Source of the DNA: Elusimicrobiota bacterium | Lineage (GTDB): Bacteria > Elusimicrobiota > Elusimicrobia > UBA1565 | Assembly: GCA_043827405.1 (NCBI GenBank) | Contig: JBDRPD010000050.1 | Location: 156,891-220,890, forward strand | Direction: 5' to 3' | Length of the DNA: 64,000 nucleotides | In this document: positions 10,993-51,226 of the stretch, one piece after another | Numbering within the stretch: the stretch's first letter is position 1 | How the letters are laid out: each line of letters starts with the position of its first letter | Notes under the pieces: generated by a model | Told to the model about the DNA's origin: nothing | The model's database searches: none | The model's input: only the letters and a program-made list of their open reading frames with translations | Made by a program: the position numbers and the translations under genes

Positions 10993-11303
10993 CCCATTTC
11001 TTCGCAATTTGAACCAGTCCATCTTGTTGATTCCCCGGCGGTTTCGGTTCGCGGGATCGCCGATCTCATGAGATTCGTCAAGGTCCATTTTGGGCGAAAG
11101 TGCCCCGGTGATGTGCGTGGTTAGTCGGGTCACCCCCATCAGAAACCTTAACGCCATGGATGATCGACTCGTGGGGAGCGCGGTCCTCGGTCCCAGCCCA
11201 GAGTGTCCTGTTCAGTGTCCTGTTTCGGTCAAAACAGGGTCTACGGCTGGCAACGATCGGCAAGAGGGGGGAAAGGGCTCCGTCGGGAAACGCAATAAAC
11301 CGA

Positions 11304-11376
11304 AAGTGTGGGCGGAAATCGAACCCGCTCGACGGGTTTTGCAGACTCGCCCCTTAAACCACTGGGGTATCGCACC
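11304..11376 (-). pseudogene. Degenerate tRNA-Cys(GCA)-like sequence, probable att remnant
   Basis: Minus strand reads GGTGCGATACCCCAGTGGTTTAAGGGGCGAGTCTGCAAAACCCGTCGAGCGGGTTCGATTTCCGCCCACACT. D and T arms fold, acceptor and anticodon stems have mismatches, no CCA. Confidence 0.6.
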
Positions 11377-11560
11377 AATAAGTTATTGTCATTGCCTTTT
11401 TGGGCCATCGGCGGCAACGGCTCGGCATCACTTGGATGTTCGCCTTCTTCGTCTCGGCACCTTTCGACGCGCCAGCTTATTCTTGGCCGCCGGAACCCGG
11501 GGGCTTCCGTTCGACCTGCTCAGGACTTCCAATCTCTCCTTTGCCCCGCACTTCCCGAGC

Positions 11561-13244: not shown

Positions 13245-13479
13245 AACTGCCTCCTGGTCTTCCTATCCTTTGATGTTACTAAAGAGCCCTATGCCCCCAC
13301 AAAATAACGTCGGACGCAGGCCCTCCGATGATCCTATTTCGGAAAAGCTGTCCGCAACTCCCAGACAAGATTGCGCCCTTACTGCGACAGGTTGCCCCAC
13401 GGGGTTGGATTGTTCGTGTTGGAGGAGACGAGAACGCGGCGCCGGGCCGGAGGCGGGCACGACCTAGCGCGAACTCTGA

Positions 13480-14406: not shown

Positions 14407-14420
14407 TCCCCGACGGGAGC

Positions 14421-14440
14421 TTGGTGCAATATTGGTGCAA
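14421..14440. repeat. Tandem TTGGTGCAA direct repeats, putative integrase arm-type sites
   Basis: Copies at 14421 and 14432, plus TGGTGCAA at 14376. About 100 bp from the tRNA 3' end. Confidence 0.5.
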
Positions 14441-14533
14441 CGAGCGGGTCAAAAAAGTGCAAAAAGGATCAAAATGGGACAAAGTCCCGCCCTGGTCCCT
14501 TTTGCATTTCTCGTCGGAAAAACCGACTTAAAG

Positions 14534-14608
14534 TGGTGGGCAGTACAGGTTTCGAACCTGTGACCTTTCGCGTGTGAGGCGAACGCTCTACCGCTGAGCT
14601 AACTGCCC
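14534..14608 (-). tRNA. tRNA-Val(CAC)
   Basis: GGGCAGTTAGCTCAGCGGTAGAGCGTTCGCCT-CAC-ACGCGAAAGGTCACAGGTTCGAAACCTGTACTGCCCACCA. Full cloverleaf with CCA. Confidence 0.97.
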
Positions 14609-14659
14609 TTATGTAGCAATTATATAACTTTCTTCCCTCTGCCTAAATCCCGAAACCCG

Positions 14660-14825
14660 GAACGTATCCAATTCGCATCCACTTAGAGACCCGATCAGAC
14701 AAGCTCCAGCAAACTCGCCAGAGGAAAAAATCAGATTTGCCGACGAGGAGCGATAACAAGCAATAACCAACAAAGTCAAAAATTCGAATTTTAAGCGAGT
14801 GCTCTACCACTCAGCTAATTGTCCC
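14660..14825. repeat. Diverged ~165-bp att-like unit, copy 1
   Basis: GAACGTATCCAATTCGCATCCAC...TCCAGCAAA...CGACGAGGA...tRNA 5'-half variant. Colinear with 17781-17947. Confidence 0.75.
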
Positions 14826-14828
14826 TGT

Positions 14829-15845
14829 TCACTCGGAGGCGGACATCAGGTCGCCGTCTTCGGCGGCGGCCCGGTGCTGATTCTTGCCGTTATGGGTGAC
14901 GCGCGAGAACTCCATGGGAATAGCGTCGCTCTTCTCCCACCCGCCACCGACGGGATAAGCGTCCGTGACGTGCATATGCAGGTGGGGCTCGGTGCTGTGG
15001 CCGGAGTTGCCGACCCGGCCGATCGACTGCTTGGCGCGAACGCGACCGCCCTTCGCGACGCCCAGCGTCCCGGGCTTGATGTGAGCGAACAGGATGAACG
15101 CGTCATCCGCGATCTTCACCACGGCATAGTTCCCGAGATATCCGTCGAAGGTCTTTCTCGGGATATTGTCGGGCTCGCCGTCGTGAGCATCGACGACCAC
15201 GCCGTCGGAGGGACAGCGGATCTCCTGGTCGTAGGCGAAAAAAGATCGATTGTCGGAGACATCGCCGTTATAGGTCTCACTGCCACGGACGATCACAAAA
15301 TCCATCGCATAGCGCTGCGCGCGTGATGATCGATGATGTGTTCCGCCCAAGAACCATTCGCCGGTCGCCGGAGTGAACGGGAAGTAGAACGGGTCCGCAA
15401 GAACGCGACTGGAATGAGGCGACGGAAAGGGGGACGCGCCCGGTCCGCTCTGTGCCTGCCCCTGCCCCGCGATGCGCCCGGAAGGCGTGAACCAGATTTC
15501 CAAGGCGAGATTGCCGACGGCCGTCTTCAATTCAAACCAATAGAGACCGGCCTTGCCCGGCATGACGGTCGCGGAATCCCGAACGAGTTCAAACGGGACG
15601 ACCGCCGCAACGGCGTTTTTGAACGCACTGCTCGAGATCTGGGCTTGAAACTTCTTCGTCAGCGTCCCGTACATCGCGTCGTACCGGCCTGCCTTCCAGT
15701 AAGCTAAATAGTCCGCCGCGCGCCGCCGGAGCAGTTCCTCGTCCACCGGCGCATTTACAGCCACCGCGCCCGAACCGACAGCCAGCGCGGCGGATGCGGA
15801 CAAGGAGGCGAGGGTCAGGCTAAGGAGAATCAGAGTAAATCGCAT
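14829..15845 (-). CDS. Exported M23-family metallopeptidase with N-terminal DUF3887-like domain
   Basis: Signal peptide. QRYAMDF, GNYAVV, FAHIK and GNSGHSTEPHLHMH motifs. Confidence 0.85.
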   Translation of the reverse strand: MRFTLILLSLTLASLSASAALAVGSGAVAVNAPVDEELLRRRAADYLAYWKAGRYDAMYGTLTKKFQAQISSSAFKNAVAAVVPFELVRDSATVMPGKAGLYWFELKTAVGNLALEIWFTPSGRIAGQGQAQSGPGASPFPSPHSSRVLADPFYFPFTPATGEWFLGGTHHRSSRAQRYAMDFVIVRGSETYNGDVSDNRSFFAYDQEIRCPSDGVVVDAHDGEPDNIPRKTFDGYLGNYAVVKIADDAFILFAHIKPGTLGVAKGGRVRAKQSIGRVGNSGHSTEPHLHMHVTDAYPVGGGWEKSDAIPMEFSRVTHNGKNQHRAAAEDGDLMSASE

Positions 15846-16081
15846 CGGTAGAGATATATTTTAGCACGGATCCTCAGGTCCTCCGCCTTCAAACTCTCTC
15901 CGATGGCGTGGCTCAGCGTCGTCTCTACCAGTGCCCGGGTCCCGTGCCCGAAAGCGCTTCACCGCCCCTCATTAACCTTCCGCTAGATTTCTCCCAGCTT
16001 GGCGAGAATAAAGAGAATCAGCACACGAATAGAAATCAAATAATACATGTAAAATAAATTACTATTTAGTATAATAGCTGC

Positions 16082-16119
16082 TTGATATATGTCACAGATA
16101 ACTATATAATAGTGTGACA
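16082..16119 (+). promoter_or_regulatory. Sigma70 promoter with overlapping inverted-repeat operator for abiE
   Basis: TTGATA-17bp-TATAAT (16082-16110). TGTCACA at 16090 and TGTGACA at 16113. Confidence 0.7.
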
Positions 16120-16120
16120 G

Positions 16121-16741
16121 ATGGGCGTGAAGCGAAAAAGCCTCCAAGAAAAGATCCTCGCAAAAGTCGTTCGTCGCGGCCGCGGGACCGTTTTCTTTGG
16201 TGAAGAATTTCTAGACATGGGACGGGCCGACGCCGTGCGCCAGGCGCTATCCCGCCTTGCCCGCGCGGGGACTATCCGAAGGATCACGACCGCGCTTTAC
16301 CACTACCCGGAATTCAACGATAAACTCGGGGGCGAATTGCCGCCCTCGGCCGACACGGTGGCACAAGCCATCGCCCGCCGCACGGACAGCAGAATCGTAG
16401 CTTCCGGCGCCTTAGCGGCGAATCTCCTCGGGCTTTCCACCCAAGTCCCCGCAAAGCGGGTCTATCTGACGAACGGCCCATCGAGGGATGTCTCCATCGG
16501 TTCCAATATTCTGAGCTTCCGTCATGCATCGCCGCGCCGAATGGCCGCCAATGGCAAGATCAGCGCCATAGTATTCGAGGCGTTTCGGTATCTTAAAAAA
16601 GAAAACGTAACCAATAACGTGGTAACACGGCTGCGGCGCATCCTTCCGCCTGCAGCCAAGGCCGAACTGCACCGCGATCTTCCACACGCGGCGGTCTGGA
16701 TGCGTCCTTTGATAGAGCGCATTACAGGAGACGAAATCTAA
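16121..16741 (+). CDS. abiEi: AbiEi antitoxin (DUF6088)
   Basis: VRQALSRL...ANLLGLSTQVP...YLTNGPSR. Confidence 0.9.
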   Translation: MGVKRKSLQEKILAKVVRRGRGTVFFGEEFLDMGRADAVRQALSRLARAGTIRRITTALYHYPEFNDKLGGELPPSADTVAQAIARRTDSRIVASGALAANLLGLSTQVPAKRVYLTNGPSRDVSIGSNILSFRHASPRRMAANGKISAIVFEAFRYLKKENVTNNVVTRLRRILPPAAKAELHRDLPHAAVWMRPLIERITGDEI

Positions 16742-16745
16742 GCGC

Positions 16746-17771
16746 ATGGATTCCGTCGCGAAGACGTCGGCACGGGAACGCGCTCAGCTATTCAAAGCTG
16801 CGGAAGCCAAGCACACACTTAAAATCGCGGCGCCGATCATCGAAAAGGACTTTTGGGTCTGTTGGAGCTTGCGCCGAATGTTCGAGGTTCTGCAATTCCG
16901 CCCTCAGTTGATCTTCAAAGGCGGCACGTCGCTTTCCAAGGTTTTCAATATCATCGAACGTTTTTCAGAGGATGTGGACCTGTCCTTGAGCCGGCGCGAC
17001 TTAGGGTTTGCTGACGACCGGGACCCGGAACAGACCGGCATCAGCAAAAATGAAGGGCGGCGCCGACTCGACGCCCTGGTGGAACAGTGCCGGCAGACCG
17101 TACGCGAGCGCCTGCTGCCGGAACTGCTCCGAGACTTTGCCGCAGTGCTCGGCGACTCCGGCTGGTCGGTCGAGTTGGACGCCGACGACCCGCAGACTTT
17201 GATCTTCTCGTACCCGACAAGCGATCTTTCCGCCGCGTTGCCGTACATCAAGCCGGCCATCCGTCTGGAAATGGGCGCTCGTTCCGACGATTGGCCGGCG
17301 ATCGACGCCGAGATAAAACCCTACGCCGCCGAGAATTTTTCGGAGATGTTCGCGCTGCCGACGTGCCGGGTACGAACGCTGAGCGCGGAGCGCACCTTCT
17401 GGGAAAAAGCGACGCTGCTCCACGCGGAGTATCATCGTCCGGAAGACAAGCAATCGCGGGAACGACTCTCAAGACACTACCACGATCTATACTGCCTTTC
17501 CCGTAACGAGCTTGGCCGCAAGGCGCTTGAAGACGGCAGCCTACTGGAGCGGGTCGTCCAACACAAACGCTTCTTCTTTGCCAGCGCCTGGGCTAATTAT
17601 GACACCGCAAAGCCGGGGACCTTCCACCTTCTCCCTACTGCGGCGCGAATGGACGCGCTGCGCAGAGACTACGACGCAATGCAACCGATGCTCTTCGGGC
17701 AATCGCCCAAGTGGGATGAGATCATCCGCGAGTTGAAGCAACTCGAAGTCTTAATTAACCGCCGCTCATAA
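16746..17771 (+). CDS. abiEii: AbiEii nucleotidyltransferase toxin
   Basis: EKDFWV, FKGGTSLSK, RFSEDVD, RTFWEK, SRHYHD. Confidence 0.93.
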   Translation: MDSVAKTSARERAQLFKAAEAKHTLKIAAPIIEKDFWVCWSLRRMFEVLQFRPQLIFKGGTSLSKVFNIIERFSEDVDLSLSRRDLGFADDRDPEQTGISKNEGRRRLDALVEQCRQTVRERLLPELLRDFAAVLGDSGWSVELDADDPQTLIFSYPTSDLSAALPYIKPAIRLEMGARSDDWPAIDAEIKPYAAENFSEMFALPTCRVRTLSAERTFWEKATLLHAEYHRPEDKQSRERLSRHYHDLYCLSRNELGRKALEDGSLLERVVQHKRFFFASAWANYDTAKPGTFHLLPTAARMDALRRDYDAMQPMLFGQSPKWDEIIRELKQLEVLINRRS

Positions 17772-17780
17772 CCGATTGGG

Positions 17781-17947
17781 GAACGTATCCAATTCGTATC
17801 CACTCCGCAACCGAATCAGGTGAGTTCCAGCAAAGTCGCGGAGTGGTAAAAATCGAGTTTCTCGACGAGGAACAAGATCGGGCAATCTCCAGCAACATTA
17901 AAAATCCCGCGTGTGAGGCGAACGCTCTACCGCTGAGCTAACTGCCC
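17781..17947. repeat. att-like unit, copy 2, ending in the tRNA-Val 5' half
   Basis: CGTATCCA tandem repeat followed by a 40-bp exact tRNA fragment. Confidence 0.8.
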
Positions 17948-18115
17948 GTATCGGTGTATTTTAGCAAACCTTCCCCCGGTCGGGAGCTTGCCCCGCCGCA
18001 AAGAACGCCGCCCCCCCATCCGGCCGATTGGCCCAAAAACGCCGGGAAAACAAGTCCTACCCGCTCTGGGCCGTTAGCCACTGTCGACAAAACGCCATTC
18101 CGCTATCCTAATAAT

Positions 18116-29702: not shown

Positions 29703-31220
29703 TCACAGCCGCGCGACGGCTGCGACCAGTTCGGCCCCGGTCGCGAAGCGCTTGCCCGCCTCCGCCGCCAGCGCCCGCTTAAACACCTCGTCGATGCCGG
29801 CCGGCAGGTCCGCCGCCCGCATGCGCGGCGGGGTGTAGAACTCTTCGCGCTTCTGGGCCAGGAAGTTCGGACCCGTGAACGGCAGCTCCCCGGTCAGCAT
29901 CTGATAGAAGCATATCGCGAGGGCATAGATATCCACCCCGCTCGACACCCCGCCCATCTCCTGCTCGGGCGCCATGTAGGGAGGCGTTCCCCAGGCGTCG
30001 GCGCGGGTCAGGCGCGCGATCGTGCTCTTGGCCTGATAGGCGATGCCGAAATCCATAACCTTGACCACGCCTTCGCGCGAGATCATGATATTGGCGGGCT
30101 TGAGGTCCCGGTGGACGACCTTCTTCGCATGCGCGTAGTCGAGCGCCGAGGCCGCGCACTTGAGGACGTACGTGGCTTCCTTCCAGGGCAGCCGGTCCCG
30201 CGCCTCAATAACGCCCTGCAGAGTCCTGCCGTCGATATACTCGAAGACGAGAAATATCTGTCCCACTTCCTTTACAATCGAGTGGATCTCAACGAGATTC
30301 GGATGCTTAAGTGAGGCGACCAGCCGCGCTTCGGTCAGAAACTGCTCAAGCTCTTTCGTGCTCTGCAGCAGCTCCGGGCGCATCTGCTTGACGGCTACCC
30401 GCCTCCCCAAGCTCCGGTCCTGGGCCTCGAAGACCTGCCCCATGCCGCCCTGGCCGATCTGCCGGATGATCTCGAAGTTGTCGCCGATCACCGCCGGCAG
30501 CTGCGGCGCCGGGCCGGTGGCGGCGGCGGTGATCGGGGCCGGCTGGCCGGGCATCGTGACGGGGGAGGTCCCCAGGGCGACCGGCATGATCTCGGGTTCG
30601 CGGCCGCCCCGGCCCAGCAGAAAACTCGCCGCGCCGAGAACAACCGCGATCCCGGCCGCGACGGCGATCAGCAGGTGCTTACGCCGCTTCTTTTGCCCCG
30701 CTTCATGCGCCGCTTTCAGCGCGCCGAAGGCCTCCTGCTCGCGCTTGAAATCGGCGATCTGCTCGAAAAACCTGTCGCGCCGCTCCTCGCCCATCCGCTC
30801 GTACATGATAATGTGCGACGTCACTGGGCCGAGGTTTTTGTGCCCCTTCAGCTTATCCTTGAGCTGGAAGCCGCGGGCAAGCGCGGTGAACTGGATGCCT
30901 TGACGGACCCGCCGAATCTCGCCGCGGACCTCCTCCGCCTCGGCGAAATCCGCGCTGAGTTCCTGCAGCAGCCCCTCATGCTCGCGCAGCCAGGCCGACT
31001 TGTCGGCGGCGGCGTTGAAGCCGCCGCGCCGCTTAGCCAGCGCCGCCAACCCGCGATCTATGCTGCGACTATGCTCCGCGAAGTCATCCTGTAAAGAATC
31101 AAGCCGATCCCAGGGGTAAAGGTCGGGCCGCGCCTTGGAGTGATCGATAGCGCCGTGCGCGCCGCCTGCCAGCAGGCAGAGCACAAAAGGGATGATGGTC
31201 AGCATCAGTCGCCGGCGCAT
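29703..31220 (-). CDS. Receptor-type Ser/Thr protein kinase
   Basis: Signal peptide, TM helix, GQGGMG, VAVK, HRDLKPAN, DFG, GTPPYMAPE. Confidence 0.93.
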   Translation of the reverse strand: MRRRLMLTIIPFVLCLLAGGAHGAIDHSKARPDLYPWDRLDSLQDDFAEHSRSIDRGLAALAKRRGGFNAAADKSAWLREHEGLLQELSADFAEAEEVRGEIRRVRQGIQFTALARGFQLKDKLKGHKNLGPVTSHIIMYERMGEERRDRFFEQIADFKREQEAFGALKAAHEAGQKKRRKHLLIAVAAGIAVVLGAASFLLGRGGREPEIMPVALGTSPVTMPGQPAPITAAATGPAPQLPAVIGDNFEIIRQIGQGGMGQVFEAQDRSLGRRVAVKQMRPELLQSTKELEQFLTEARLVASLKHPNLVEIHSIVKEVGQIFLVFEYIDGRTLQGVIEARDRLPWKEATYVLKCAASALDYAHAKKVVHRDLKPANIMISREGVVKVMDFGIAYQAKSTIARLTRADAWGTPPYMAPEQEMGGVSSGVDIYALAICFYQMLTGELPFTGPNFLAQKREEFYTPPRMRAADLPAGIDEVFKRALAAEAGKRFATGAELVAAVARL

Positions 31221-38997: not shown

Positions 38998-39013
38998 TAG
39001 GGCCCGGGAAACC

Positions 39014-39808
39014 ATGCCGCATAAAAACGTCAACGGAATAGAGATCTACTATGAGGTCCACGGAAAGGGCGAGCCGCTCGTCCTCATTATGGGCCTGCGG
39101 AGAAATATCGAGTCCTGGTACCGGCAGATTTCCGAACTATCCAAACACTTCCAGGTAATCGCTTTTGATAACCGCGGAGCGGGCCGCACGGACAAGCCGG
39201 CCATGGATTATTCCATACGTCTCTTCGCCGACGACACCGCCGGGCTTATGGACGCCTTGAACATTAAAGACGCTTATATTTTCGGCATATCCATGGGGGG
39301 CTATATCGCCCAGGAACTGGCGATCAACCACCCGCAAAAGGTCCGCAAGCTGATCCTGGGCTGCACCAGCGCCGGCGGCAGGCGGGCCGTCCTAATGCGC
39401 CTGGAGAGGATAAAAAAATTCATGGCCAATGAAGGATTGAGCCCCGAAGAGATTCTGCGCAAGGATATGGATATCTATTTCTCGGATAATTTTATCGCCG
39501 ACAATAAGGAATCTATCGATGAGTTCGTCGCCCGCTCACTGCGGAATTACCAGCCGGCCGACGCCTTCATACGGCAGTTTGAGGCCTGCCGCAAACAGGA
39601 CACCCTCGACCGCATAGGCGCTGTTTCCGTTCCGGTGCTGATCCTGACCGGCGACGACGATCCCCTTGTCCCGCCCGGGAACTCGGACATACTAAAAGAG
39701 CTCCTGCCCCATGCCGAATTCCACTCCTTTCCCGGCGGACGCCATATGTTCTTTATTGAGGAAGCGGAACAGGTCAACCGCATGGCGCGGGACTTCTTCC
39801 TCTCATAA
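39014..39808 (+). CDS. Alpha/beta hydrolase
   Basis: FDNRGAG, GISMGG, GDDD, GGRH. Confidence 0.9.
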   Translation: MPHKNVNGIEIYYEVHGKGEPLVLIMGLRRNIESWYRQISELSKHFQVIAFDNRGAGRTDKPAMDYSIRLFADDTAGLMDALNIKDAYIFGISMGGYIAQELAINHPQKVRKLILGCTSAGGRRAVLMRLERIKKFMANEGLSPEEILRKDMDIYFSDNFIADNKESIDEFVARSLRNYQPADAFIRQFEACRKQDTLDRIGAVSVPVLILTGDDDPLVPPGNSDILKELLPHAEFHSFPGGRHMFFIEEAEQVNRMARDFFLS

Positions 39809-39930
39809 GCGGTCCTCCGGCCCATTTCCTCCGCCCTATGGGCCCAGAGATTTATGGGCCAATTTATGAAGTAAAAACCGTTCTAAATACCCTCTCCGTT
39901 CCGACCGTGTTCGCATATAATCACCTCCAC

Positions 39931-41880
39931 ATGAATTCGGCATGGATGCGGGGCCCCCGGTCCTGCTTATGCATCGTACTGTCGGCCGCCTTGGTGATAA
40001 CTTCGCCGGGCCTATTCTGCTATGAAGCCCTGGGTGCCATGGTGGCCGGAACCTCCGCCGCGGCGGGAGTTTCCGCCGTTCCCGCCGGCGCCGCAGGTGC
40101 GGTGCTGGGCGCCGTCCCGCTCCAGCGGAACATGACGGCGGCGACGCTCAATGCCCTGCAAACGACCAGCGTCCTGCCCGGCCTGGAAACGGTCGCTCCG
40201 GCCATGACCCAGCGGATTCACGGCCTGATCCAGTCATCCGCGCAAACGATCAAGATTGAAAAGGAGCAGGCGCCCGCTCCGCTGCATAAAGCGCAAAAGA
40301 GCGTCGCCGCCGTTTTCAGCACGCTGGGATTTATTAGTTCGGACACAGATAATAAGACCCCCGCGCGGCGCACCCCGGCTCCGCAGCGCTCGCCCTGGAC
40401 GCCGGTCCGGGCGGCCGAGGAGTTCCGCATCCTCTTCGACGGCGGGCGCCGGCGGAAAAACGCCGTCAGCTCCGATGTCCCACAGGGCATCCACAGCCGC
40501 AAGGCCAACGGCGTCCACATCAGCCTGACCGGCCCAGGACTATCTGAAGTCCAAATGCAGGAAGTTCCCGCGCCGGCTGCGGCGCCGAAGACCAGCATCT
40601 GGGATTCCGCCATCGTACGCGTAGGCCTGCCGACCGCGGCGCTGGCCGCGACGGCCCTGCTTTATTCCGCCGATCTGGTGACTACCGGCATCATGGCGGG
40701 GACCTTAATGGTCTCCATCCTGGCGCATGAGACCGCGCATATCCTGGGCCTGCGCATCTGGGGAGACAAGACGCCGGCCAAGATGGGACGCGACTCCCTC
40801 AACCCTCTCGCTCATGCCGACGCGGTGGGCACCATATTAGTCCCGGCAGCGAGCGCGGCGATATCCAACTCCCTAATCGGCGTCCCCATCGTGACGGGCT
40901 GGGCCAAGCCGGTTCCTGTCGAGTTCAACAATCTCAAGAACGTAAAGAAAGACGCCGCCAAGGTCGCCATCATGGGACCCCTGGCCAACCTGGCGCTGGC
41001 GGCGCTAACCGGCACCGCACTCCTGGCTTTGCCGGCCGGCGGCACGGCCGCCCTGGTGCTCTCGACGATGTTTAAGGCGAACCTCGCGCTCGTCCTGTTT
41101 AATCTCATTCCCACGCCGTGGTCGGATGGCGGCAAGGTCCTTATCAGCCTCCTGCCGGAGCGGATCTACTCATGGTGGCGGCATAATCCGCGCATCCCAG
41201 ACGGCTACCAGAACATCTACCAACGCCTCTACGAGGGTCCGTCGCATGTGCTCAGCTCTTTTAATCTCGACTCGCGCGGGCAGATCAACGGCGCAACCCG
41301 GGCCCTGACCTTGGCCGGGATGGGCGCTTTCGTCTATCTCCTTTCGGGGACCATGCTCCACCTGCCCATCATGCTGCTGGCTCTGCCCTGCAACTACGAT
41401 TACTGGTGCATCGCCGAGAAGGTGCGCTCGGAAAAGGCCGTCGGCGAAATGATGGATCTCCTGAGCTCTTGGGGCACGCTCCTGGTGCAGCTCGCTGAAG
41501 ACCATGACGTGGAAAGCGAGGTCAGCGCCAAGGACGCCGAGCTGAACCTGGCGCATGCGATAGACGTCCTCCTCGAGACGCTTATGGCCAAAGAGGAGTT
41601 CCGCAACCTTCCCGACGACGAAAAGATCGAACGCTTCATGGCGGAGTTCCCCGAGTTCGCCGCCCGCGACCTGCGGAACAAGGCATTCACCGAGGACACC
41701 GTCGAGACCATCCTCAAGGTTCTCAACGATGCGCGCAACCAGCCCTTCAAGGACCGCCTCAAGAGCTGGCTCAAGGAGCACGGCATCTTCAAGAAGATGG
41801 CCAGCCCGCACGAAAAGAAGCACTACAAGGACCAGATGGAAGAAGCGAAGAAGGACAAGACGCGCGGCGCCGGCTCCTAA
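39931..41880 (+). CDS. Site-2 protease (M50) with long N-terminal leader and acidic C-terminal domain
   Basis: HETAH, GWAKPVP, GPLAN, FNLIPTPWSDGG. Start uncertain (ORF open from 39838). Confidence 0.88.
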   Translation: MNSAWMRGPRSCLCIVLSAALVITSPGLFCYEALGAMVAGTSAAAGVSAVPAGAAGAVLGAVPLQRNMTAATLNALQTTSVLPGLETVAPAMTQRIHGLIQSSAQTIKIEKEQAPAPLHKAQKSVAAVFSTLGFISSDTDNKTPARRTPAPQRSPWTPVRAAEEFRILFDGGRRRKNAVSSDVPQGIHSRKANGVHISLTGPGLSEVQMQEVPAPAAAPKTSIWDSAIVRVGLPTAALAATALLYSADLVTTGIMAGTLMVSILAHETAHILGLRIWGDKTPAKMGRDSLNPLAHADAVGTILVPAASAAISNSLIGVPIVTGWAKPVPVEFNNLKNVKKDAAKVAIMGPLANLALAALTGTALLALPAGGTAALVLSTMFKANLALVLFNLIPTPWSDGGKVLISLLPERIYSWWRHNPRIPDGYQNIYQRLYEGPSHVLSSFNLDSRGQINGATRALTLAGMGAFVYLLSGTMLHLPIMLLALPCNYDYWCIAEKVRSEKAVGEMMDLLSSWGTLLVQLAEDHDVESEVSAKDAELNLAHAIDVLLETLMAKEEFRNLPDDEKIERFMAEFPEFAARDLRNKAFTEDTVETILKVLNDARNQPFKDRLKSWLKEHGIFKKMASPHEKKHYKDQMEEAKKDKTRGAGS

Positions 41881-42031
41881 CCCGCCCCCTTTTCCCGCAC
41901 GAAACACCGTTGCACACGGGAAAGAAATTCTGAAATCCCCCTTCTAGAGCCAATGAGGCTCCCCCTCCCGGACCTAGGACTCATGCGGCAAAACGCGATC
42001 CGCGGTATCTTAGGGTACGCTAATCGCGCAC

Positions 42032-45000
42032 ATGTCACTCCACATCAAATATACCGCCGCCGCAGTCTGCGCGTCACTCATCCTGACCGCACCCGGCGTC
42101 CCGTGCTACCAGGCCCTAGCCTCGGTCGCCGCCGTATCATCGGCCGGACGCGGCGCGGCGGTCAGCGGTGCGGCGGGAGCGTCGGTCGGCGCGGTGCCGC
42201 ACGGCCTTGCCGGACAGTTGCTTAATCCCGTTCAGGTCGACATCCAGGGCTCGCTCTCAACCGTAGCCAACCTCTCTGTACAGCCGGCGGCGAATATTCC
42301 GATCCCAACCACGATTCCATCGCCGACGCTTAAAGCGGCTCACCAACCGCAGGCCAAGCCCCTTATAAAGGAAAGACTGCCGCAAAAGCTGGGACGCATT
42401 CAAAAGCAGTTCCCCAAAGACAAGAAGAATAAATCAGGGATCCGATCCCGCCTTTTCTTTGACGGCGGACACCTGCTCAAGCGCGGCGGCGCATCGGCCG
42501 TCGCCGGCAAAGCATCCATCACCGCGTCGAGCCTCAATCCCGCCTTTACCGGGACACCCGTGAATAAACCCGCGCTCCCGGCGCCCAGGCGCTCTCGCGC
42601 CAAATCTTCCTGGCTGGTTCCGGCCGCCGACGCGGCCCTGCTCACCGCCGCCGTCATTTTGTGGCAGGCCGATCTGCTGCCGGTCTCGCTAGGCCTGAGC
42701 GCGGCGTTGTTTATGCTCGGCGAGGTCGGCGGCGGTGCTCCCGACCCGCGCGATAAAGTGTTTCGCGGTCAGGAGCTCTCCGGTCCGACCGAGATATGGA
42801 TCAACCTCGACTCGGAGCTCAGCCCCCAGCAGCGCGGAGCCTTCGTCCGCCGCCACGGCCTGTCGGCGGAGGCCGAGCGTGAATGGATCATGAACCACCG
42901 CCTGCGGATCGTCGCCGGCAGCGTCGCTGACGCCGGGTCCATCGTCCGCTCGGTTATCGAAGACGAACGCGTCGACTCGATCGCCGTCCACCAGGAGATT
43001 GAGGAACTTATCCAAGGCGCGGCGCCGGCCGCCCCCCCCGCGCGCTCAGCCTACCGGGCCGGAGCCTCCGACTTCAACGACGGCTCACCCGCCGGCGACA
43101 TTTGGATTTACTTCCGCGAGGGCACCAACCGCGCCGCCATCGAGACCATGCTCGGCGACAGCTACCGCGCCGACTTCCACATGAGCGAGCCCACCCCGCG
43201 CGTCGTCGTGCATGCCGGCGGCTCCGCCGACGACGCCTACCGGCTCGGCGCGCGCATGATCACCAACCCCAACGTCAGCGAGGTCCGCGCCCACATCGGC
43301 GTCGCCTGGCGCCTGCGCACCGACACCCGCGCCGAGATCCTCGCCGACCGGCGCCTCGAGGCGCGGCAGGTGCGCGCGCGCTTTTTATGGGCCGCAGATC
43401 CTGAGGGCGCGCGTGCGGTGTTTTTCGGCGCCCCCTGGCAAAGCTCCAGCCCTGAGACCCTGGACGACGATACCGTGGTCGTAACCGCGACTCTAAACTC
43501 CGACGCCGACATGGCCCGAGCCCTGCAGGACCTCGCAGCGGTAGATTCGATCGACCGCATCTACGCTAATCCCGACGAGGTGCCGACCATTGAAGGTCCC
43601 GCTCCACAACAAAATACCGTTCTCGACAAGCTCACCAGCGAAGGCTACGAGGGCAGCGACCCGCTGCTCTTAAAGGTCCGGCTTTATGAGGAAGTGGCGG
43701 CACGCCAGATCGGCGAAATCGTCGCCCGCTCCCTCGACGATCGGTATCGGCGCTGGGAGTTCGACTACGTCGACGACCGGCGAAACAGCCGCGGCTCGGA
43801 GTTCACTGTCTTCCTGACCAACCTCCACGATGACGCAGCCATGGCTGAAGGCATAATGCTCCTCGCCGCCGAGCAGGAGGTCGCAGAGATCGGCGTGTCG
43901 CCCGAGTATCACGAGGCCGCCCGCGGGGAGGCACCGAAAGCGCCGACCACCCCTGGGAAGTTCTCCACCGCCGACCACGGCAGCGTCGACCCCTTCTTCT
44001 TTCGCTTCCGCATCGCCGAGCACCTAAACCAGGCGCACGCCCACGGGCTCATGGAACGCAGCTTCAAAGATCTCTTCGCCGGCTGGAAGGTGGAAGACGA
44101 GAACGACGGACCCGGCGTCCTGGTCAGCGTCAACATCAAGCATGCGACAGGCGCCGAAACCTTCATCGCCGGGCTGCTCAACCTCGAACGCGAGAAGGGA
44201 GTGTCCGAGATCATCGTCAAGGCCGACATCCTGGACCTGGTGCGTCATGCGCGGCCCGCTCAACCGGCGCCCGCGCCGAGCGGCGCACTAAGCAAGATTC
44301 AAGGCGATCCCCGCCACTACTACGGCATCGGCGGCGGCATCCCCGACGGCCGCGAAGTGAAGGTCTACCTGCGGCCCCGCCCCGGCGGGCCCAGCGCCGA
44401 CGCCTTGGTCGACCAGCTGGGCATCGAGTACGGCAGCATGGGCCATAACGGCAATGCCCCCGAAGAAGACGGCACTGTCGAGGTGAAGATCGACGGAACC
44501 ACGTTCTCGGATCTCGACGAGTTCGCTCGGCAGGTTATTCGTGCCGCCGGGATTGAGGGCGTCGAGCGCATCGTCGTCAGCCCCGAGGTCTTCGTAGAAA
44601 TCCTGCGCCTTGAGGGACAGCCGACCGAAGCGCCCGCCGGCGCGAGCCTATTAGATAAGTTTCAGACCAACCCCGCGGCCGAGAATGGGCCCGATCATTT
44701 GGTGGTTGCCGTCGTCCGGCTGGACGAGGGAGATACCCCCGTCGAGGAGATGGCTGAGATTAAAGGCCTGACCGGCGGTACAGTCGACGGCGTGACGGTG
44801 GCGCGGGAAGGAACCTACAACGGCGTCCACGCTCAATATTCAGAGGTCCATGCCGGCAGCTATTTAGCGGATGAGGAGTTCGCTCGCAAGCTCGCGGCCT
44901 TGGCCTGGAACGATCGGGTGGTGGGCATCGAGGTGCGCACCGACAAGATGGAGGCGGTGCGGCCGATCCTTGAGAAGGCGGCGCTGGCGCAGCAGCACTC

Positions 45001-48000
45001 GCGGCGGAACACCTCAGGCGCATCCCCTGAAGCCAAGATACATGCCAGGCAGGACATGATCGGCGTCGGAAACTTCTGGATCCATTACCGGCCGGGCCTG
45101 ACGCAGGACGAGCTGCGGGCCATACAGGGCCCGTATGTAACCGGCAGCGCCCGCTTCATCACCCTGCAAGGCAAAAGCGGTCCCTTCATGAAGAGCTTGA
45201 TCGAAGCGCCCGATGCGAACGCAGCCGCGGACTTAGCCCACAGGATCGCCGCCGAGCCGGACGTCACGGCGGTGCACCTCCATCCCGATGCCGCCGACCT
45301 TCTCCGCAGCGCGCCGGCGAACATGGAACCCCTCCGCGCTGCGCCGCCGCAGCATGACCGCAAGATCGTCCACGGCGACTTGGCGCCGGACTTCATGAAA
45401 GTCGAGTTCAACGCGGGGACCTCCGACTCCCTCATCGATACAGTCCTCGGCGCCCACGGCTTCGGACGCCTCAACGCCAACCGTAATCCCGCCGACGTCC
45501 GACCCGGCGAGATCGGCAAGATTCTGGCCCTGGCCGCCGAAGCCGTCGTCCATACGATCACGCTCGGGGCCGCCAAGTTCGGTGAGCTCGCCGGCCGCAA
45601 TGTCTTCCGCGCCGCTCCAGCGCCGACCGCCGAAGAGGTTTCCCCGCCGGAGGAAGCTCCTCACGCCGCCGAGACGGAGCCCGAACCCGATCCCGGCCCG
45701 CTGGGCAAGGCCGCGGTCGACGCCTCGGTATTCGAACGCCACGAGCTGCGCGTCATGTTCGCGCCGGGCACGAGCGCGGAGCAGATCGACGCCTTCCTTA
45801 ATGACCATATCCTAAAGAATGCCGGGCTTTACCGCCGACCGGACCCGCTCAGCCTATCGCTCATCTCCCGTGAACCTGCCGCCTCGGCCCGCACCATGCA
45901 GGCCGCCAAACAAAACGCGCAGGTCGCCTCCGTGCTGATGTCGCAGGAGACCTGGGCCGATCTCAACTCACTTAAGGACGAAGTGTTCACGTCGGAGACG
46001 CCAGAGAACGACTTGCGCGCGGTAGAGGAAGAGCGCGGGCTCCTGATCCGCTTTATCGAGCAGGACTCCCAAAAGATACACGAATTCGCTAAGAAGTTCG
46101 ACCTCCGGCTCGCCGCTCCCGACTATCGGGAAAAGGGGCAGCACCTGTATGAGATGCCCGAGTCCTATGACCCGGCCTGGCTTATAGATGCGATGCGGGT
46201 TAATATCGAAAACGGAAACTGGCCGGTAGCCGAAATCTCTCCCTTAATCGAGAACGAAAGCGCACCCATAGAGAAAGCCCCGCCGCCGGCGGCGCGCCGC
46301 GACGCCCATGCCGATTGGATCGAATTTCTCAACACCCGCCCGCTCAACGGCGGCGACAAGACGCTGACCTCCGAACAGGTGCGGGCGCTCTCGGTATTTC
46401 TCAAGCCCGTCGTTCCGCCATCGGGCGTGCGCAAGCACCCGGTCATCGGACGCATGGATGAAATGAAGCGCGCGACCCGCATCCTGACCGCGCCGCGCGG
46501 CGGAATCACCAGCGCCATGCTGGTCGGCCCGGCCGGCACCGGCAAGACGGCGGTGTTTGAAGGCCTGGCCCAGCTGATCGAGGACGCCGAGCATGCCGAC
46601 GCCGTCCGCGTACGCAAGACCGACGGCAGCAGCGACTATCTCCACATAAAACGCCTGCGCGCCCGCTGGTTTGTCGAGCTCGACATCGACCGCCTGCTGA
46701 CCGAGGAAGATCCGGTAAAGACCTTGCTCGCGCTCATCGACATGATCCCGCAGCTCAACAATCCCGACCAGCGCGAGGGCAACAAGGTCATCCTGCTTTT
46801 GGACGAAATCCAGAAGCTGCGCGACAACCCGCAGGGCATCCGCATCATGAACGCCATGAAGCGGCCCATCCGCGACGGCCGTATCGCGGTAGCCGGCACC
46901 ACCACCGACAAGGAGTGGAAGCAGTACTTCGACACCGACGAGGCGCTCAAGAGCCGCTTCGAACTGATCCCGGTCGATGAGCCGGCTCCCGAGGAAACGC
47001 TTGAGATGCTGCGCGGCGCGAAAGCCCATTTCGAGTGGAAGCACGACACACAGATCGACGACGATGCGCTGGAAGCCGCGGCCAAGCTTTCCGAGCAGTT
47101 CATTAAGGAATTCAATAATCCCCGCGCGTCCTTTGACTTCGTAATCCCCGGCGCCGCCGAGCTGGCGCGGCCGGACAACCTGCGCTCGGCCCTGGCCTTT
47201 GATATTCGCGAAGGCTGGCGGCGGCTGACGGCATCGGTAAACACCGCGCGGCAGACACTTATCGACAAGGGCATCGCCTCCTCGCTGGCGCTGCCGGCCG
47301 AGCTCTACAACCGGGTCGCCGGACTCATTAAGGAGATTATCGAAGATTACGAGGCACGCGACGCAGTGCAGGACGGCAAGGGCGCGGTCACCTCCGGAGT
47401 CGTCAAGCGGCGCATCTCCGAGATGACCGGCATCCACGCCGGGCAGCTGACGATGGGAGAAGAGGACACCCAGCGCTACGTCGACATGGAGCAGACGATG
47501 GCTGAGGATGTGGTCAACCAGGACCGCGCACTCGAGGCTCTCGGCCGCGCCATCCGCCGCAACAAGGCCGGCCTCGGCGATCCCAATAAGCCGATGGGTA
47601 AGTTTCTCTTCGTCGGCCCCACCGGTACCGGCAAGACCCATATCGTCAAGCAGCTGGCCAAGTTCCTGTTCGAAGACGAAGAGGCCTATATCCGCTTCGA
47701 CATGACCGAGTTTATGGAACAGCACTCGGTGGCTCGGCTGATCGGCTCGCCGCCCGGCTACGTCGGCTATGAAGAAGCGGGTCAGCTCACCGAAGCGGTG
47801 CGTAAAAAGCCCTACTCGGTAGTGCTCTTCGACGAGATTGAGAAAGCGCATCCCGACGTCTGGAACATTTTCCTGCAGATTCTCGATGACGGACACCTGA
47901 CCGACGGTCATGGCCGCCGGGTGGATTTCAAGAACACGGTCATCATCTTCACCTCAAACATCGGCATGGACGTCGTCGACTCCGACGGCTTCGCCCGCCG

Positions 48001-50395
48001 CATCGCCGAGGCCGAAGAGAAGGGCGACCGGAAGATGGTTGATGAACTGCAGAAGGCATGGGACGAGGACATCGCCACCGCCATTAAGGAAGGCATCAAG
48101 AGCCGGATGCGGCCCGAATTCGTCAACCGCCTCGACCCCGATCCGCGCTCGAAGAGCAAATGGGTACTCTTCAACCGCCTTAACCGGGCGCATGCGCGGC
48201 TGATCACCAAGATCGAGCTCAGAAAGTTCACCCGGCTGCTCGAAGACCGCCACGGCACGAAGCTCGAATACGACAAGGAGGTGATCGACTTCATCTCAGA
48301 GTACGGCTTCTCGCCGGTATACGGCGCGCGGCCGCTTAAGGAAACGATCGAGAAGTTCATCAGCGACACTCTCGCCCTGTGGATCCTCAAGGAAGCGACC
48401 GAGGGCGGCAGCGACGTGCGCGGCGGCAGAATCAAGGTTTCCATAGAGGACGGAAAGCCCAAGTTCACGGTCCTCCCCAAGGAGGAGAAGAAGGTCGAAC
48501 GCACGGCACTTGAAGGACTCGCCCACCGCATGACCGAGGAGGTCATGGCCGTGATCGAGGGGTTGGTGGAGGACTGGCTCGGCGACGGGCAAGGCACGCC
48601 CGAACCGACGGAGAGCTACTTCGACTCAATCCTGCACCAGCTTAAGGGCGATGCGCCCTCCGCCCCCGCGGAAGGGACGCCGACGGCCTTCTATCCCGAT
48701 ACGCCGCTGCCCATGCGGGCGGATGCGGCTTATACGGCGGAGCACAACAATCCCGCCAAGCGCGACCAGGCCATGCGCAAGGCGATCAAAGACGCCGTTG
48801 CCTTAAGTCCCGATCTGCTCGGCGGCGAGGGCTTCCTCAAGCTTTTCGTGCGGCACGCCAAGGCCCGCGCCGGCGCCGGCGAGAAGCCGGTCAGCCTGAA
48901 GCTGCAGCGGGCCGACGGCACGGTCCGCGCGCTCGTTCACGGCGACCATGCGCTTACCGACGATGAGCGGCGTTTCCTGCAGGACCACTTCACCGGAACG
49001 CCGCCGGCCAGCCTGCGCGCGGCGCAGAAAAAGGCGGATCTCCTCGGCGTCGACTCGGAGCGCGAGTTCGACAGCGCCCTGCTCGATCTCTACCGGCGGA
49101 TCGCGACGACGCCCGGAGCGCGTATCGGCTTCGCCTCCGACAGCGCGGGGACCGACTACTGGCTGGAAATCGCGCCGCCGCGGGAATCGATAGCCGCAGC
49201 GGCGGCGCCGAAAAAGCTCACTCCGCACCAGCAGCGTGAACGCGCCAAGGCGAAAAAGCTATTCCTCAAAACGGTCCTATCCAAGAACGACGACGGTCCG
49301 GCCATCAGCATCGCCGCCGCGACCGGCTGGGCCGAGCTCTCCACTCCCGAAGATCTGGCCGAGGTCCGCGGCTGGATCCTGGACAAGAAATGGGCGGCCA
49401 AGGACACCATCAGCGGCCGCCTGACCGGCGACTGGCCGCTCTTGATGACGATGGCGCTGACCATGGAGAAGCACGGCACCGCCGCCGACATCAAGCCGCT
49501 GGAAACCATGCTGCGCGCCTTAACCTCCGGCTCGCACTTCCACCAGCCGGCCAAGACGGCGCTGACCGGTGCCCTGACCGCGGTCCTAACCCGCGCCGGA
49601 TATGAAGAGGTCCTCACCGCCTATGAAAGGTCAAAAGGCGTTGTTAATCATGAGGTCAACCAGGCCGTCCTTCCGGCCCTAGGACAAACAGGGCGCGCTG
49701 ACGACATCGATAAACTCCTCAGCAGCACCGGCGGGATGGACTATCTGCCCAATGCCGAAGGCTTCGCGCACCTAGTCGCGCGCACCGACCCGGACCGGCT
49801 CGCCGCCTTCATGGCCGAGCGCTGGCCCGTAAACTCCGACGGCAAGATTCCCAAAGACCGTCAACCCTGGGATTCACGCACCGTGGCCGAACGCACCGCC
49901 GTACTCAGGATCGTCGCCGCAGGCACGGACAACCCTGAACGCGATCTGGAGATCCTGTGGCGGATCGTCGGGCTCAAGCACGGCTCCGACCGCCCGACTA
50001 CCTATGCCGCCGCCGAAGCCTTCGGCACGGTGGCCGGCCGGCTCGGCGGCGCCGGGGACCTCAAGCAGCGCTTCGCGGACTTTAACAAGACGCATACCAT
50101 GACCAGCAGCGACCGCGACTGGGGAAAACTCCTCGCCTTGCTCCATACCGCCCGCGAGGTCGGAGGCGCCGACGTACTGCCGGCCTTGGAGGAAATTCTC
50201 GCCCGCTCCCCGTCCGGCCTGGACTACAACTACGAGCAGCCCTACTTTGAGACTCCTCTCACTTGGGCCAAGGTCTTAGTGCGCAGCGGGCTGTTTCCCG
50301 CCTACGCAAGGACGCGCCTGCAAAAGATGCTGACCTCGCGCCGGCCGATGGAGACCGCCGCCGCCCTCTACGCCATCGCCTTGGCGCGATCATAA
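42032..50395 (+). CDS. Giant multidomain Clp/Hsp100 AAA+ ATPase (2787 aa)
   Basis: NBD1 GPAGTGKT / LLDE. NBD2 GPTGTGKT, RLIGSPPGYVGY, LFDEIEKAH, YGARPL. Long extensions on both sides. Confidence 0.92.
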   Translation: MSLHIKYTAAAVCASLILTAPGVPCYQALASVAAVSSAGRGAAVSGAAGASVGAVPHGLAGQLLNPVQVDIQGSLSTVANLSVQPAANIPIPTTIPSPTLKAAHQPQAKPLIKERLPQKLGRIQKQFPKDKKNKSGIRSRLFFDGGHLLKRGGASAVAGKASITASSLNPAFTGTPVNKPALPAPRRSRAKSSWLVPAADAALLTAAVILWQADLLPVSLGLSAALFMLGEVGGGAPDPRDKVFRGQELSGPTEIWINLDSELSPQQRGAFVRRHGLSAEAEREWIMNHRLRIVAGSVADAGSIVRSVIEDERVDSIAVHQEIEELIQGAAPAAPPARSAYRAGASDFNDGSPAGDIWIYFREGTNRAAIETMLGDSYRADFHMSEPTPRVVVHAGGSADDAYRLGARMITNPNVSEVRAHIGVAWRLRTDTRAEILADRRLEARQVRARFLWAADPEGARAVFFGAPWQSSSPETLDDDTVVVTATLNSDADMARALQDLAAVDSIDRIYANPDEVPTIEGPAPQQNTVLDKLTSEGYEGSDPLLLKVRLYEEVAARQIGEIVARSLDDRYRRWEFDYVDDRRNSRGSEFTVFLTNLHDDAAMAEGIMLLAAEQEVAEIGVSPEYHEAARGEAPKAPTTPGKFSTADHGSVDPFFFRFRIAEHLNQAHAHGLMERSFKDLFAGWKVEDENDGPGVLVSVNIKHATGAETFIAGLLNLEREKGVSEIIVKADILDLVRHARPAQPAPAPSGALSKIQGDPRHYYGIGGGIPDGREVKVYLRPRPGGPSADALVDQLGIEYGSMGHNGNAPEEDGTVEVKIDGTTFSDLDEFARQVIRAAGIEGVERIVVSPEVFVEILRLEGQPTEAPAGASLLDKFQTNPAAENGPDHLVVAVVRLDEGDTPVEEMAEIKGLTGGTVDGVTVAREGTYNGVHAQYSEVHAGSYLADEEFARKLAALAWNDRVVGIEVRTDKMEAVRPILEKAALAQQHSRRNTSGASPEAKIHARQDMIGVGNFWIHYRPGLTQDELRAIQGPYVTGSARFITLQGKSGPFMKSLIEAPDANAAADLAHRIAAEPDVTAVHLHPDAADLLRSAPANMEPLRAAPPQHDRKIVHGDLAPDFMKVEFNAGTSDSLIDTVLGAHGFGRLNANRNPADVRPGEIGKILALAAEAVVHTITLGAAKFGELAGRNVFRAAPAPTAEEVSPPEEAPHAAETEPEPDPGPLGKAAVDASVFERHELRVMFAPGTSAEQIDAFLNDHILKNAGLYRRPDPLSLSLISREPAASARTMQAAKQNAQVASVLMSQETWADLNSLKDEVFTSETPENDLRAVEEERGLLIRFIEQDSQKIHEFAKKFDLRLAAPDYREKGQHLYEMPESYDPAWLIDAMRVNIENGNWPVAEISPLIENESAPIEKAPPPAARRDAHADWIEFLNTRPLNGGDKTLTSEQVRALSVFLKPVVPPSGVRKHPVIGRMDEMKRATRILTAPRGGITSAMLVGPAGTGKTAVFEGLAQLIEDAEHADAVRVRKTDGSSDYLHIKRLRARWFVELDIDRLLTEEDPVKTLLALIDMIPQLNNPDQREGNKVILLLDEIQKLRDNPQGIRIMNAMKRPIRDGRIAVAGTTTDKEWKQYFDTDEALKSRFELIPVDEPAPEETLEMLRGAKAHFEWKHDTQIDDDALEAAAKLSEQFIKEFNNPRASFDFVIPGAAELARPDNLRSALAFDIREGWRRLTASVNTARQTLIDKGIASSLALPAELYNRVAGLIKEIIEDYEARDAVQDGKGAVTSGVVKRRISEMTGIHAGQLTMGEEDTQRYVDMEQTMAEDVVNQDRALEALGRAIRRNKAGLGDPNKPMGKFLFVGPTGTGKTHIVKQLAKFLFEDEEAYIRFDMTEFMEQHSVARLIGSPPGYVGYEEAGQLTEAVRKKPYSVVLFDEIEKAHPDVWNIFLQILDDGHLTDGHGRRVDFKNTVIIFTSNIGMDVVDSDGFARRIAEAEEKGDRKMVDELQKAWDEDIATAIKEGIKSRMRPEFVNRLDPDPRSKSKWVLFNRLNRAHARLITKIELRKFTRLLEDRHGTKLEYDKEVIDFISEYGFSPVYGARPLKETIEKFISDTLALWILKEATEGGSDVRGGRIKVSIEDGKPKFTVLPKEEKKVERTALEGLAHRMTEEVMAVIEGLVEDWLGDGQGTPEPTESYFDSILHQLKGDAPSAPAEGTPTAFYPDTPLPMRADAAYTAEHNNPAKRDQAMRKAIKDAVALSPDLLGGEGFLKLFVRHAKARAGAGEKPVSLKLQRADGTVRALVHGDHALTDDERRFLQDHFTGTPPASLRAAQKKADLLGVDSEREFDSALLDLYRRIATTPGARIGFASDSAGTDYWLEIAPPRESIAAAAAPKKLTPHQQRERAKAKKLFLKTVLSKNDDGPAISIAAATGWAELSTPEDLAEVRGWILDKKWAAKDTISGRLTGDWPLLMTMALTMEKHGTAADIKPLETMLRALTSGSHFHQPAKTALTGALTAVLTRAGYEEVLTAYERSKGVVNHEVNQAVLPALGQTGRADDIDKLLSSTGGMDYLPNAEGFAHLVARTDPDRLAAFMAERWPVNSDGKIPKDRQPWDSRTVAERTAVLRIVAAGTDNPERDLEILWRIVGLKHGSDRPTTYAAAEAFGTVAGRLGGAGDLKQRFADFNKTHTMTSSDRDWGKLLALLHTAREVGGADVLPALEEILARSPSGLDYNYEQPYFETPLTWAKVLVRSGLFPAYARTRLQKMLTSRRPMETAAALYAIALARS

Positions 50396-50413
50396 GCCTT
50401 CTTTTTTCGTATC

Positions 50414-51226
50414 ATGAGCCCGCTCATGACTTCCTCCTGCCACAACCACTCCATATGGAGCGACGGCCAGACCCCGGTCGCCGACATGGTCGCCGGCGCG
50501 CGGAAGCTGGGCCTGGACGTCCTCGGCATGTCCGACCACTGGGTCCTGCATCCGAGCGGCCAGACGCCCAAGTGGTCGATGCCGCCGGAGAAGCTCGGCG
50601 AATATATTGGACATGTGCGCTCCTTCGATGATCGCGCCGGGCTCCGGGTCCTCGCCGGCGTAGAGGTGGACTGGATAGCGGAATCGGCCGCCGGGATCCG
50701 CGACGCGCTGAAGAAAGCCGCCCCGGACTATTCCATCGGCTCGATCCATTACGCCGATCCCGCCACCGAACCGATCGACGGTACCCGCAAGTACTGGGAC
50801 CGTATGACGCAGGACGAGGTGGACGAGGCGCATCATATCTACTGGAAGAACCTGCGCGCCATGGCGGAAAGCCGGCTGTTCACCATCGCCGGGCACCTCG
50901 ACCTGACCAAAAAGTTCCGCGTCTACGCCAGCGCTCCGCCCCAGGACATTATTAAGGCGGCGCTGGACGCCATCGCCCGGGCGGGCATGCCGGTCGAGCT
51001 CAACACCTCCGGCTGGCATAAGCCCTGCGACGAGTGCTACCCCGCGCCGGCACTGCTGAAGCAATGCCGCAGCCGGGAGATCCCGGTCATACTGACCGCC
51101 GACGCCCACCACCCCGACCAACTGCGGCGAGACTTTGACCGCGGCGCGCTGCTGCTGAAGGACATCGGCTACACCAAGACGGTACGGCTGGGCCCGGACG
51201 GCCTGACAGAATACCCCCTTAGATAA
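50414..51226 (+). CDS. PHP-family histidinol-phosphatase (HisJ/HisK-like)
   Basis: HNHS..SDG, SDH, GSIH, GHLD, ELNTSG, ADAH. Confidence 0.85.
   Translation: MSPLMTSSCHNHSIWSDGQTPVADMVAGARKLGLDVLGMSDHWVLHPSGQTPKWSMPPEKLGEYIGHVRSFDDRAGLRVLAGVEVDWIAESAAGIRDALKKAAPDYSIGSIHYADPATEPIDGTRKYWDRMTQDEVDEAHHIYWKNLRAMAESRLFTIAGHLDLTKKFRVYASAPPQDIIKAALDAIARAGMPVELNTSGWHKPCDECYPAPALLKQCRSREIPVILTADAHHPDQLRRDFDRGALLLKDIGYTKTVRLGPDGLTEYPLR

Follow-up and report, generated by a model that had tools for sequence, protein, structure and literature searches.

A giant leader-bearing Clp/Hsp100 protein of an Elusimicrobiota bacterium is the ATPase half of a site-2-protease/Clp fusion split over two genes

What does a Clp/Hsp100 ATPase of 2787 residues do behind a signal-peptide-like leader, and on which side of which membrane does it work? 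The question is raised by the gene P0001 (42032..50395, + strand), found in a stretch of 64,000 nucleotides from an Elusimicrobiota genome assembly (hereafter the window). The initial annotation described its product as a membrane-tethered or exported unfoldase of novel architecture. Here we examine the integrity of the gene, the anatomy of the protein, the family to which it belongs and the origin of its present form, and weigh the readings of its function.

The open reading frame of P0001 runs through 2787 codons with zero internal stops, and includes two Walker-bearing nucleotide-binding domains (referred to as NBD1 and NBD2). The locus (39000-51000) is covered by a single 21-kb contig of run X1 with 0 differences and a flat depth of ~20, an agreement that is not independent, since X1 may be the source of the assembly. 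The ATPase part is matched in 16 of 40 related genomes at E ≤ 6e-146, as against only ~1e-103 for the ordinary ClpC of the same genomes, and these matches lie mostly in open frames of 2400-3400 aa. Because relatives carry the matching ATPase part in frames equally long, and the X1 contig spans the locus, a misassembled fusion is ruled out; the gene is real, and its annotation as a 2787-aa Clp/Hsp100 protein stands. The whole domain order also recurs at one locus of a complete chromosome (L128:4061-12229) with three frame breaks, probably sequencing indels; this record backs the domain order, not the intactness of the frame. Elsewhere in the window, the G+C content shifts from ~0.54 (1-18000) to ~0.64 (18000-64000), and the first 18 kb may have come from elsewhere; a gene at 29703-31220 (- strand) encodes a signal peptide, a membrane helix and a Hanks-type Ser/Thr kinase in a receptor-kinase layout.

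The protein begins with a signal-peptide-like leader (aa 1-31; 42032..42124, + strand), in which a basic n-region, a hydrophobic core and an A-x-A site are recognisable by eye (KD11 peak 2.23), so that the signal-like N-terminus first noted is borne out as to its features; its score with the leader HMM is circular, the HMM having been trained on the leader family. The leader is followed by a low-complexity and then basic linker (42125..42607, +; 21 K/R and 3 D/E in aa 101-192) and by a two-helix hairpin (aa 193-233; 42608..42730, +). This hairpin accounts for the annotated hydrophobic segment, although it is only weakly hydrophobic (KD19 about 1.7). In the place of Clp_N lie tandem ferredoxin-like units with an ACT- or subtilisin-prodomain-like fold (42779..46267, +; about 11 by eye), in agreement with the tandem α/β domains without Clp_N of the initial annotation. 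With an iterated HMM, 4 repeats were detected in P0001 and 92 across 25 family regions, as against 0 in a reversed control; the last two units were modelled as ferredoxin-like α/β domains (pLDDT 87.5). In structural comparisons of these models, ACT domains tie with subtilisin prodomains (Z 7.2-7.3; the fervidolysin prodomain, at Z 7.2 and Atlas 0.76-0.77, is level with ACT domains), and such tied scores name no family for the repeats. All Atlas structural leads for the repeats fall below 0.9, and the repeat region as a query against proteins of 1532-4878 aa matched P0001 itself only. Neither the subtilisin prodomain (I9) nor Clp_N (PF02861) is among the best 25 of 31 Pfam matches of P0001, and Clp_N is also absent from the precomputed list.

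NBD1 (aa 1467-1712; 46430..47167, +) lies where it had been placed, with Walker A at 46526, Walker B with its Glu at 46793, and an arginine finger. Its pore-loop tyrosine is lost, being present in 0 of 34 family rows, while ClpC and a second giant Clp of the same genome (on contig C36, see below) do have it. A short, family-specific helical middle domain of about 80 aa follows (47168..47401, +), again as annotated. NBD2 (aa 1795-2135 by Pfam/NCBIfam; 47414..48436, +) had been called canonical. This fits its Walker A and Walker B, its tyrosine pore loop (at 47744; present in 33 of 34 family rows, P0001 included), its arginine finger and its sensor 2, but does not extend to the IGF loop, which is found in 0 of 34 family rows and is replaced by a helical insert of variable length. 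According to PMC5540906, the IGF/L loop is a ClpP-docking feature, and both pore tyrosines are important in substrate processing.

The C-terminal part was modelled with a pLDDT of 80, and Foldseek returned zero matches for this model at E ≤ 0.001. Its first domain (48710..49186, +) is predicted to adopt the Bergerat fold (SpoIIAB, Z 9.8, rmsd 3.8, 124 aligned; further HATPase rows at Z 7.6-8.9). The ATPase boxes of GHKL proteins are the N-box Asn and the G1 DxGxG, neither of which was seen by eye in a 14-row alignment; the fold of the annotated GHKL-like domain is thus retained and its recognisable ATP-binding boxes are not. The helical HEAT-like repeats proposed at the C-terminus appear in the model as an α-solenoid (49220..50392, +; HEAT/PC-repeat-like). 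The best structural match of the solenoid is the proteasome subunit Rpn2 (Z 14.6, rmsd 5.6, 343 aligned), a score near the level common among helical repeats, and the likeness may be generic.

Like ClpA, ClpB and ClpC as described in PMC5540906, P0001 has a middle insertion, the NBD2 tyrosine loop and a D2-small domain, and both of its AAA+ modules carry Walker A/B. Unlike these three proteins, it is devoid of Clp_N, the NBD1 pore tyrosine and the IGF/L loop, and adds a membrane hairpin, the repeats, and the GHKL-like and solenoid domains. It is 34% identical to the genome's own ClpC and scores far below the NCBIfam cut-offs of ClpA, ClpB, ClpV, ClpK and ClpG (e.g. 474 bits against 1232 for ClpB and 384 against 993 for ClpA). 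In a quick tree of NBD2, from which L007 was left out for want of a motif match, the P0001 family forms its own clade, apart from ClpV; the backbone of this tree is open, and therefore a ClpB or ClpC donor cannot be named. ClpV/TssH is a specialised class I Clp without a ClpP partner, a trait that P0001 would share. P0001 differs from this type VI protein in its score (361 bits against the TIGR03345 cut-off of 885), in its separate position in the tree and in residing in a genome without a VipB match. By its predicted rings, P0001 is a class I Clp, and its sequence is not that of ClpA, ClpB, ClpC or ClpV.

The initial annotation overlooked the partner of P0001. The family's site-2-protease/Clp fusion is split here, P0001 being its ATPase half, and the other half is encoded by the upstream gene P0002 (39931..41880, +; 649 aa from the database start, the open frame beginning at 39838). 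P0002 comprises a leader, a site-2 protease domain (M50) and a soluble, family-specific helical domain (41389..41877, +), and ends at the point where its fused relatives continue into the hairpin. Its zinc ligands (40726..41130, +; HExxH at 40726-40740, Asp motif at 41101-41130) are invariant in 15 of 15 alignment rows and both absent from P0001; the best solved match of the M50 domain is mjS2P (3b4r, E 2.4e-6), and its Atlas model match is to small M50 proteins (TM 0.78). Like the site-2 proteases mjS2P, RseP and SpoIVFB, P0002 and the fused relatives carry HExxH and the Asp motif, and unlike them they bear the leader, the helical domain and a coupling to Hsp100, by fusion or in tandem. The M50 Asp motif lies within the Clp chain in 30 of 33 close homologues, with the site-2 protease ahead of the repeats; the other three are P0001, P0005 and one N-terminally cut record. 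Among 20 loci in related genomes, M50, helical domain and NBD1 share one frame in 16, the N-half is missing from the contig in 3, and 1 is another paralogue; the N-half of the fused relatives aligns with P0002 at 38-53%.

Those close homologues that bear names are from Elusimicrobiota, as are 19 of 23 genome loci found in a C-terminal alignment search with one peptide pattern (these 23 overlap another set of family loci, so the counts are not additive). The family helical domain is matched in 21 of 301 genomes of the phylum, 17 of them within this order, the two weakest matches being doubtful. Basal members (P0031, P0032, P0033, P0035 and L086) have NBD1 almost directly after the helical domain, without the repeat array, and more distant long Clps (P0036, P0041, P0045, P0055 and a 5022-aa frame on G292 C27) combine an HExxH/M50 match with other leader types. 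As judged from the latter, the link between protease and Clp may be older than this order. No description of the architecture, of an M50-Clp fusion or of Elusimicrobiota Clp proteins was found in the literature searched, the coverage of which left most subscription journals outside; 'Clp' and 'M50' have 0 occurrences in the main text of two papers on giant proteins, whose supplements could list such proteins. This locus adds to the family the split form, a topology argument from the hairpin remnant, and presence and absence between close relatives.

The genome (G000) also encodes a fused copy, which spans contigs C30 and C43, the ends of which overlap by 141 identical bases. The upstream neighbours of the fused copy recur at three same-family loci, and none of the 10 neighbours in the window was matched at any family locus: the fused copy is syntenic, and the pair P0002/P0001 is a second copy outside this synteny. 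In the ATPase trees P0001 falls within the fused proteins, and therefore the M50-less state is derived. When P0001 is aligned with the fused paralogue (28% over 280 columns, pairwise E 5e-4), its hairpin matches the helix pair ahead of HExxH, so that the catalytic core seems to have been lost by an internal deletion, with the hairpin as a remnant of these two M50 helices. P0001 retains about 55% identity to the fused paralogue, with its catalytic motifs kept. In the helical-domain tree, P0002 and the fused copy of the genome come together (100/100). Its helical domain is 73% identical to that on C30 and its M50 part only 55%; these unequal identities point to gene conversion or co-adaptation between the paralogues.

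Stand-alone proteins with M50 and the helical domain were sought in the range of 374-1190 aa, giving 11 matches, 4 of which were inspected. Besides P0002, one of them, P0061, looks complete; the others are marked partial, lie on short contigs, represent the C30 fragment, or belong to a chromosome equal in length to that of the frame-broken L128. P0061 ends at the same point as P0002, is 50% identical to it and groups with it in the M50 tree (99/99). P0061 and P0005, the only other M50-less Clp, each lie on a contig of 21,484 bases, and, if this equal size reflects a shared contig, they probably form a second split pair in one other metagenome. Some results speak against this: in the ATPase trees P0001 and P0005 stay apart, and therefore a single origin of the split is supported for the M50 half only, and the helical domain of P0002 goes with the fused copy. 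Two independent losses of M50, as first read from the ATPase tree, were partly withdrawn when the alignment was split and P0002 and P0061 came together in the M50 part. No further M50-less Clp copy was found among 16 same-family genomes. A near-identical contig of another study (run X3; one contig, depth 4.7) is missing the stretch 41884..50424; positions 41883 and 50425 are joined in it, and its two sides show 3 and 4 differences. On it P0002 is directly followed by a PHP gene and P0001 is absent, and therefore the Clp half is an accessory gene here and the pair is not obligatory.

The side of the membrane on which P0001 lies can be approached through its protease relatives. The HExxH helix of site-2 proteases is here taken to run from outside to inside. 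According to PMC12067869 and PMC3604715, the N-terminus of RseP is periplasmic and its first helix belongs to the conserved core, and HExxH of mjS2P lies in the second of six helices. The family M50 domain aligns with mjS2P in a register that places HExxH in the second helix. Together with the strongly basic linker before the first helix, this register suggests that linker, active site, repeats and ATPase share a cytosol-type face, which would place the ATPase on the cytosol-type face of the protease in whatever membrane holds it; the P0001 hairpin may not span the membrane. The earlier proposal that a hairpin would make the ATPase extracytoplasmic holds only with a translocating Sec leader, and the homology of the hairpin and the basic linker argue for the cytosol-type face. 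Of the two options in 'membrane-tethered or exported', a tethered Hsp100 of unusual build is supported, and export applies only if the leader translocates.

A leader like that of P0001 heads about 25 unrelated ORFs in the genome. Pfam matches of 22 of these (one in two halves) include MFS transporters in 4, and otherwise an ABC exporter, a LonB-type protease, Clp, Fic, M48, S41, S8, M50 plus S8, α-amylase and vWA/TPR proteins. In the leader-headed LonB-type, Clp and Fic proteins, the stretch from leader to enzyme shows no hydrophobic peak, and the MFS domains directly follow the linker. Their layout suggests that such cargoes need cytosol on the linker side, so that either the leader is non-translocating or the cytosol is that of another cell. 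A reduced hydrophobicity of leader-bearing MFS proteins was not found (mean 1.86, n=7, against 1.78 for ordinary ones, n=15; p=0.67).

Several of these leader proteins are unusual in themselves. A signal-like leader and an N-terminal extension of 200-600 residues are present in 7 of 22 MFS matches in the genome. The second giant Clp (G000 C36:3477-10172, L094:1-6696; 2231 aa) keeps the NBD1 pore tyrosine and an IGF loop, and its leader and ATPase are not separated by a hydrophobic helix; G013 and G007 encode similar leader-headed Clps (2238 and 2416 aa). The gene at C3:33364-36705 (L092) joins, behind the leader and within a single chain, a site-2 protease (M50) to a protease of the site-1 type (subtilase S8), and that at C84:31474-35031 (L107) encodes a LonB-type AAA protease in which the leader is the sole hydrophobic peak. 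A ClpP-like peptidase (C10:2656-4104; PF00574, E 7.8e-20) is preceded by an ordinary signal peptide and then a long coiled coil, and so is apparently exported. No ClpP with the leader was found in the genome, the matches being two ordinary ClpP, this ClpP-like protein and one SppA-like match.

The reading to which we give about an even chance is that the split site-2-protease/Hsp100 machine resides in the cell's own inner membrane, where it would cut and extract membrane proteins; we slightly prefer the own inner membrane to that of another cell. P0001 would be the motor half of a membrane-bound cut-and-extract machine with an FtsH-like logic, which arose when the second copy of the fusion became two tandem genes, each with a leader, as seen in this genome and probably in one more. 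Homology and charge suggest that the two leftover M50 helices hold P0001 at the membrane, and that repeats, rings and solenoid lie together with the protease active site on one cytosol-type face. P0001 would form a hexamer under the membrane, in which, to judge by the motifs, NBD2 would grip and thread and NBD1 would mainly assemble or regulate, and the ferredoxin-like units and the solenoid might choose substrates or partners. It would extract membrane proteins or cleaved stubs from the bilayer, either to ready them for cutting by P0002 or the fused paralogue or once this has taken place; alternatively, the substrate may be pulled into reach of the protease. ClpP would not be involved. FtsH and the mitochondrial i-/m-AAA proteases likewise combine a membrane anchor, an AAA+ unfoldase and a zinc protease and can extract membrane proteins (PMC12067869), with a single AAA ring and a soluble M41 chamber in contrast to the predicted double Hsp100 ring and intramembrane M50 of P0001/P0002. 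The resemblance would be one of working principle only; the two M41 matches in this genome are on contigs other than that of P0001, and P0001 is not of the M41-behind-single-AAA type. Several points tell against the machine in the own membrane: P0001 is absent from the X3 contig, the hairpin is weakly hydrophobic and may not span the membrane, a cleavable-looking Sec leader fits badly with a cytosolic linker there, and the need of the cell for it is unexplained given that the genome also encodes two FtsH, RseP-like and small M50 proteases and ClpC.

In the second reading, the leader would be a real Sec leader followed by a transit-like basic linker, and both halves would be delivered to the membrane of a prey or host, where they would strip membrane proteins and run on its ATP. 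We regard this as possible, though somewhat less probable as a location, and hold with the same reserve that the leader is a delivery address and the machine one item of a kit of proteases, amylase and transporters dismantling the membrane proteins of a victim by a route other than type III, IV or VI; delivery into a target cell, suggested at the outset, keeps that standing. The leader is signal-like and heads about 25 extra copies of hydrolases and transporters, and, if Sec exports ATP users, these would reach ATP only in another cytosol. However, VipB, VirB4 and FlhA have no match in this 98%-complete genome, in which three secretins are present, and the leader-bearing MFS proteins, being as hydrophobic as ordinary ones, should stop in the own membrane. 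We know of no prey or host of this Elusimicrobiota order. A comparable puzzle is posed by giant Omnitrophota proteins (10.1101/2023.11.21.568195). It is improbable, but not far-fetched, that P0001 acts without M50, as an anchored remodeller or export motor for leader proteins in the manner of HSP101/PTEX or ClpV: M50 was lost and the anchor kept, the IGF loop is absent, the protease gene can stand without P0001 (the X3 contig), and Plasmodium HSP101/ClpB2 of PTEX is a precedent for an Hsp100 as translocation motor, working at a membrane and outside ordinary cytosolic quality control (PMC7355975). HSP101, however, as described there, has retained its N-domain along with both pore loops and is docked to a pore; for P0001 no pore partner and no pore gene nearby were seen. 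Furthermore, P0001 does not group with ClpV, the M50 half is present in both M50-less cases (the second presumptively), and two 97%-complete same-family genomes have leader proteins but gave no match to the family helical domain and none at family level to the ATPase, and therefore the leader system is seemingly independent of this Clp family. That P0001 is a redundant, decaying duplicate or an assembly product is very unlikely; the non-syntenic position of the second copy, its absence from one close relative's contig and the lack of another M50-less copy among the 16 same-family genomes would fit, yet the 8.4-kb frame is intact and has preserved its catalytic motifs while being only about 55% identical to the fused paralogue, a single contig spans the locus, and an orthologue of the stand-alone M50 half exists (50% identity).

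Should the cut-and-extract machine in the own inner membrane be the right reading, an intramembrane site-2 protease would be linked to an Hsp100 that has two rings and threads with only one of them, and bacteria would own a second, independently built answer to the problem solved by FtsH. The natural split provides two separately expressible halves, which makes the coupling of cleavage to ATP-driven extraction directly testable. It also sharpens the question of the Elusimicrobiota leader, which heads ATP-dependent enzymes that are unable to work in a periplasm.
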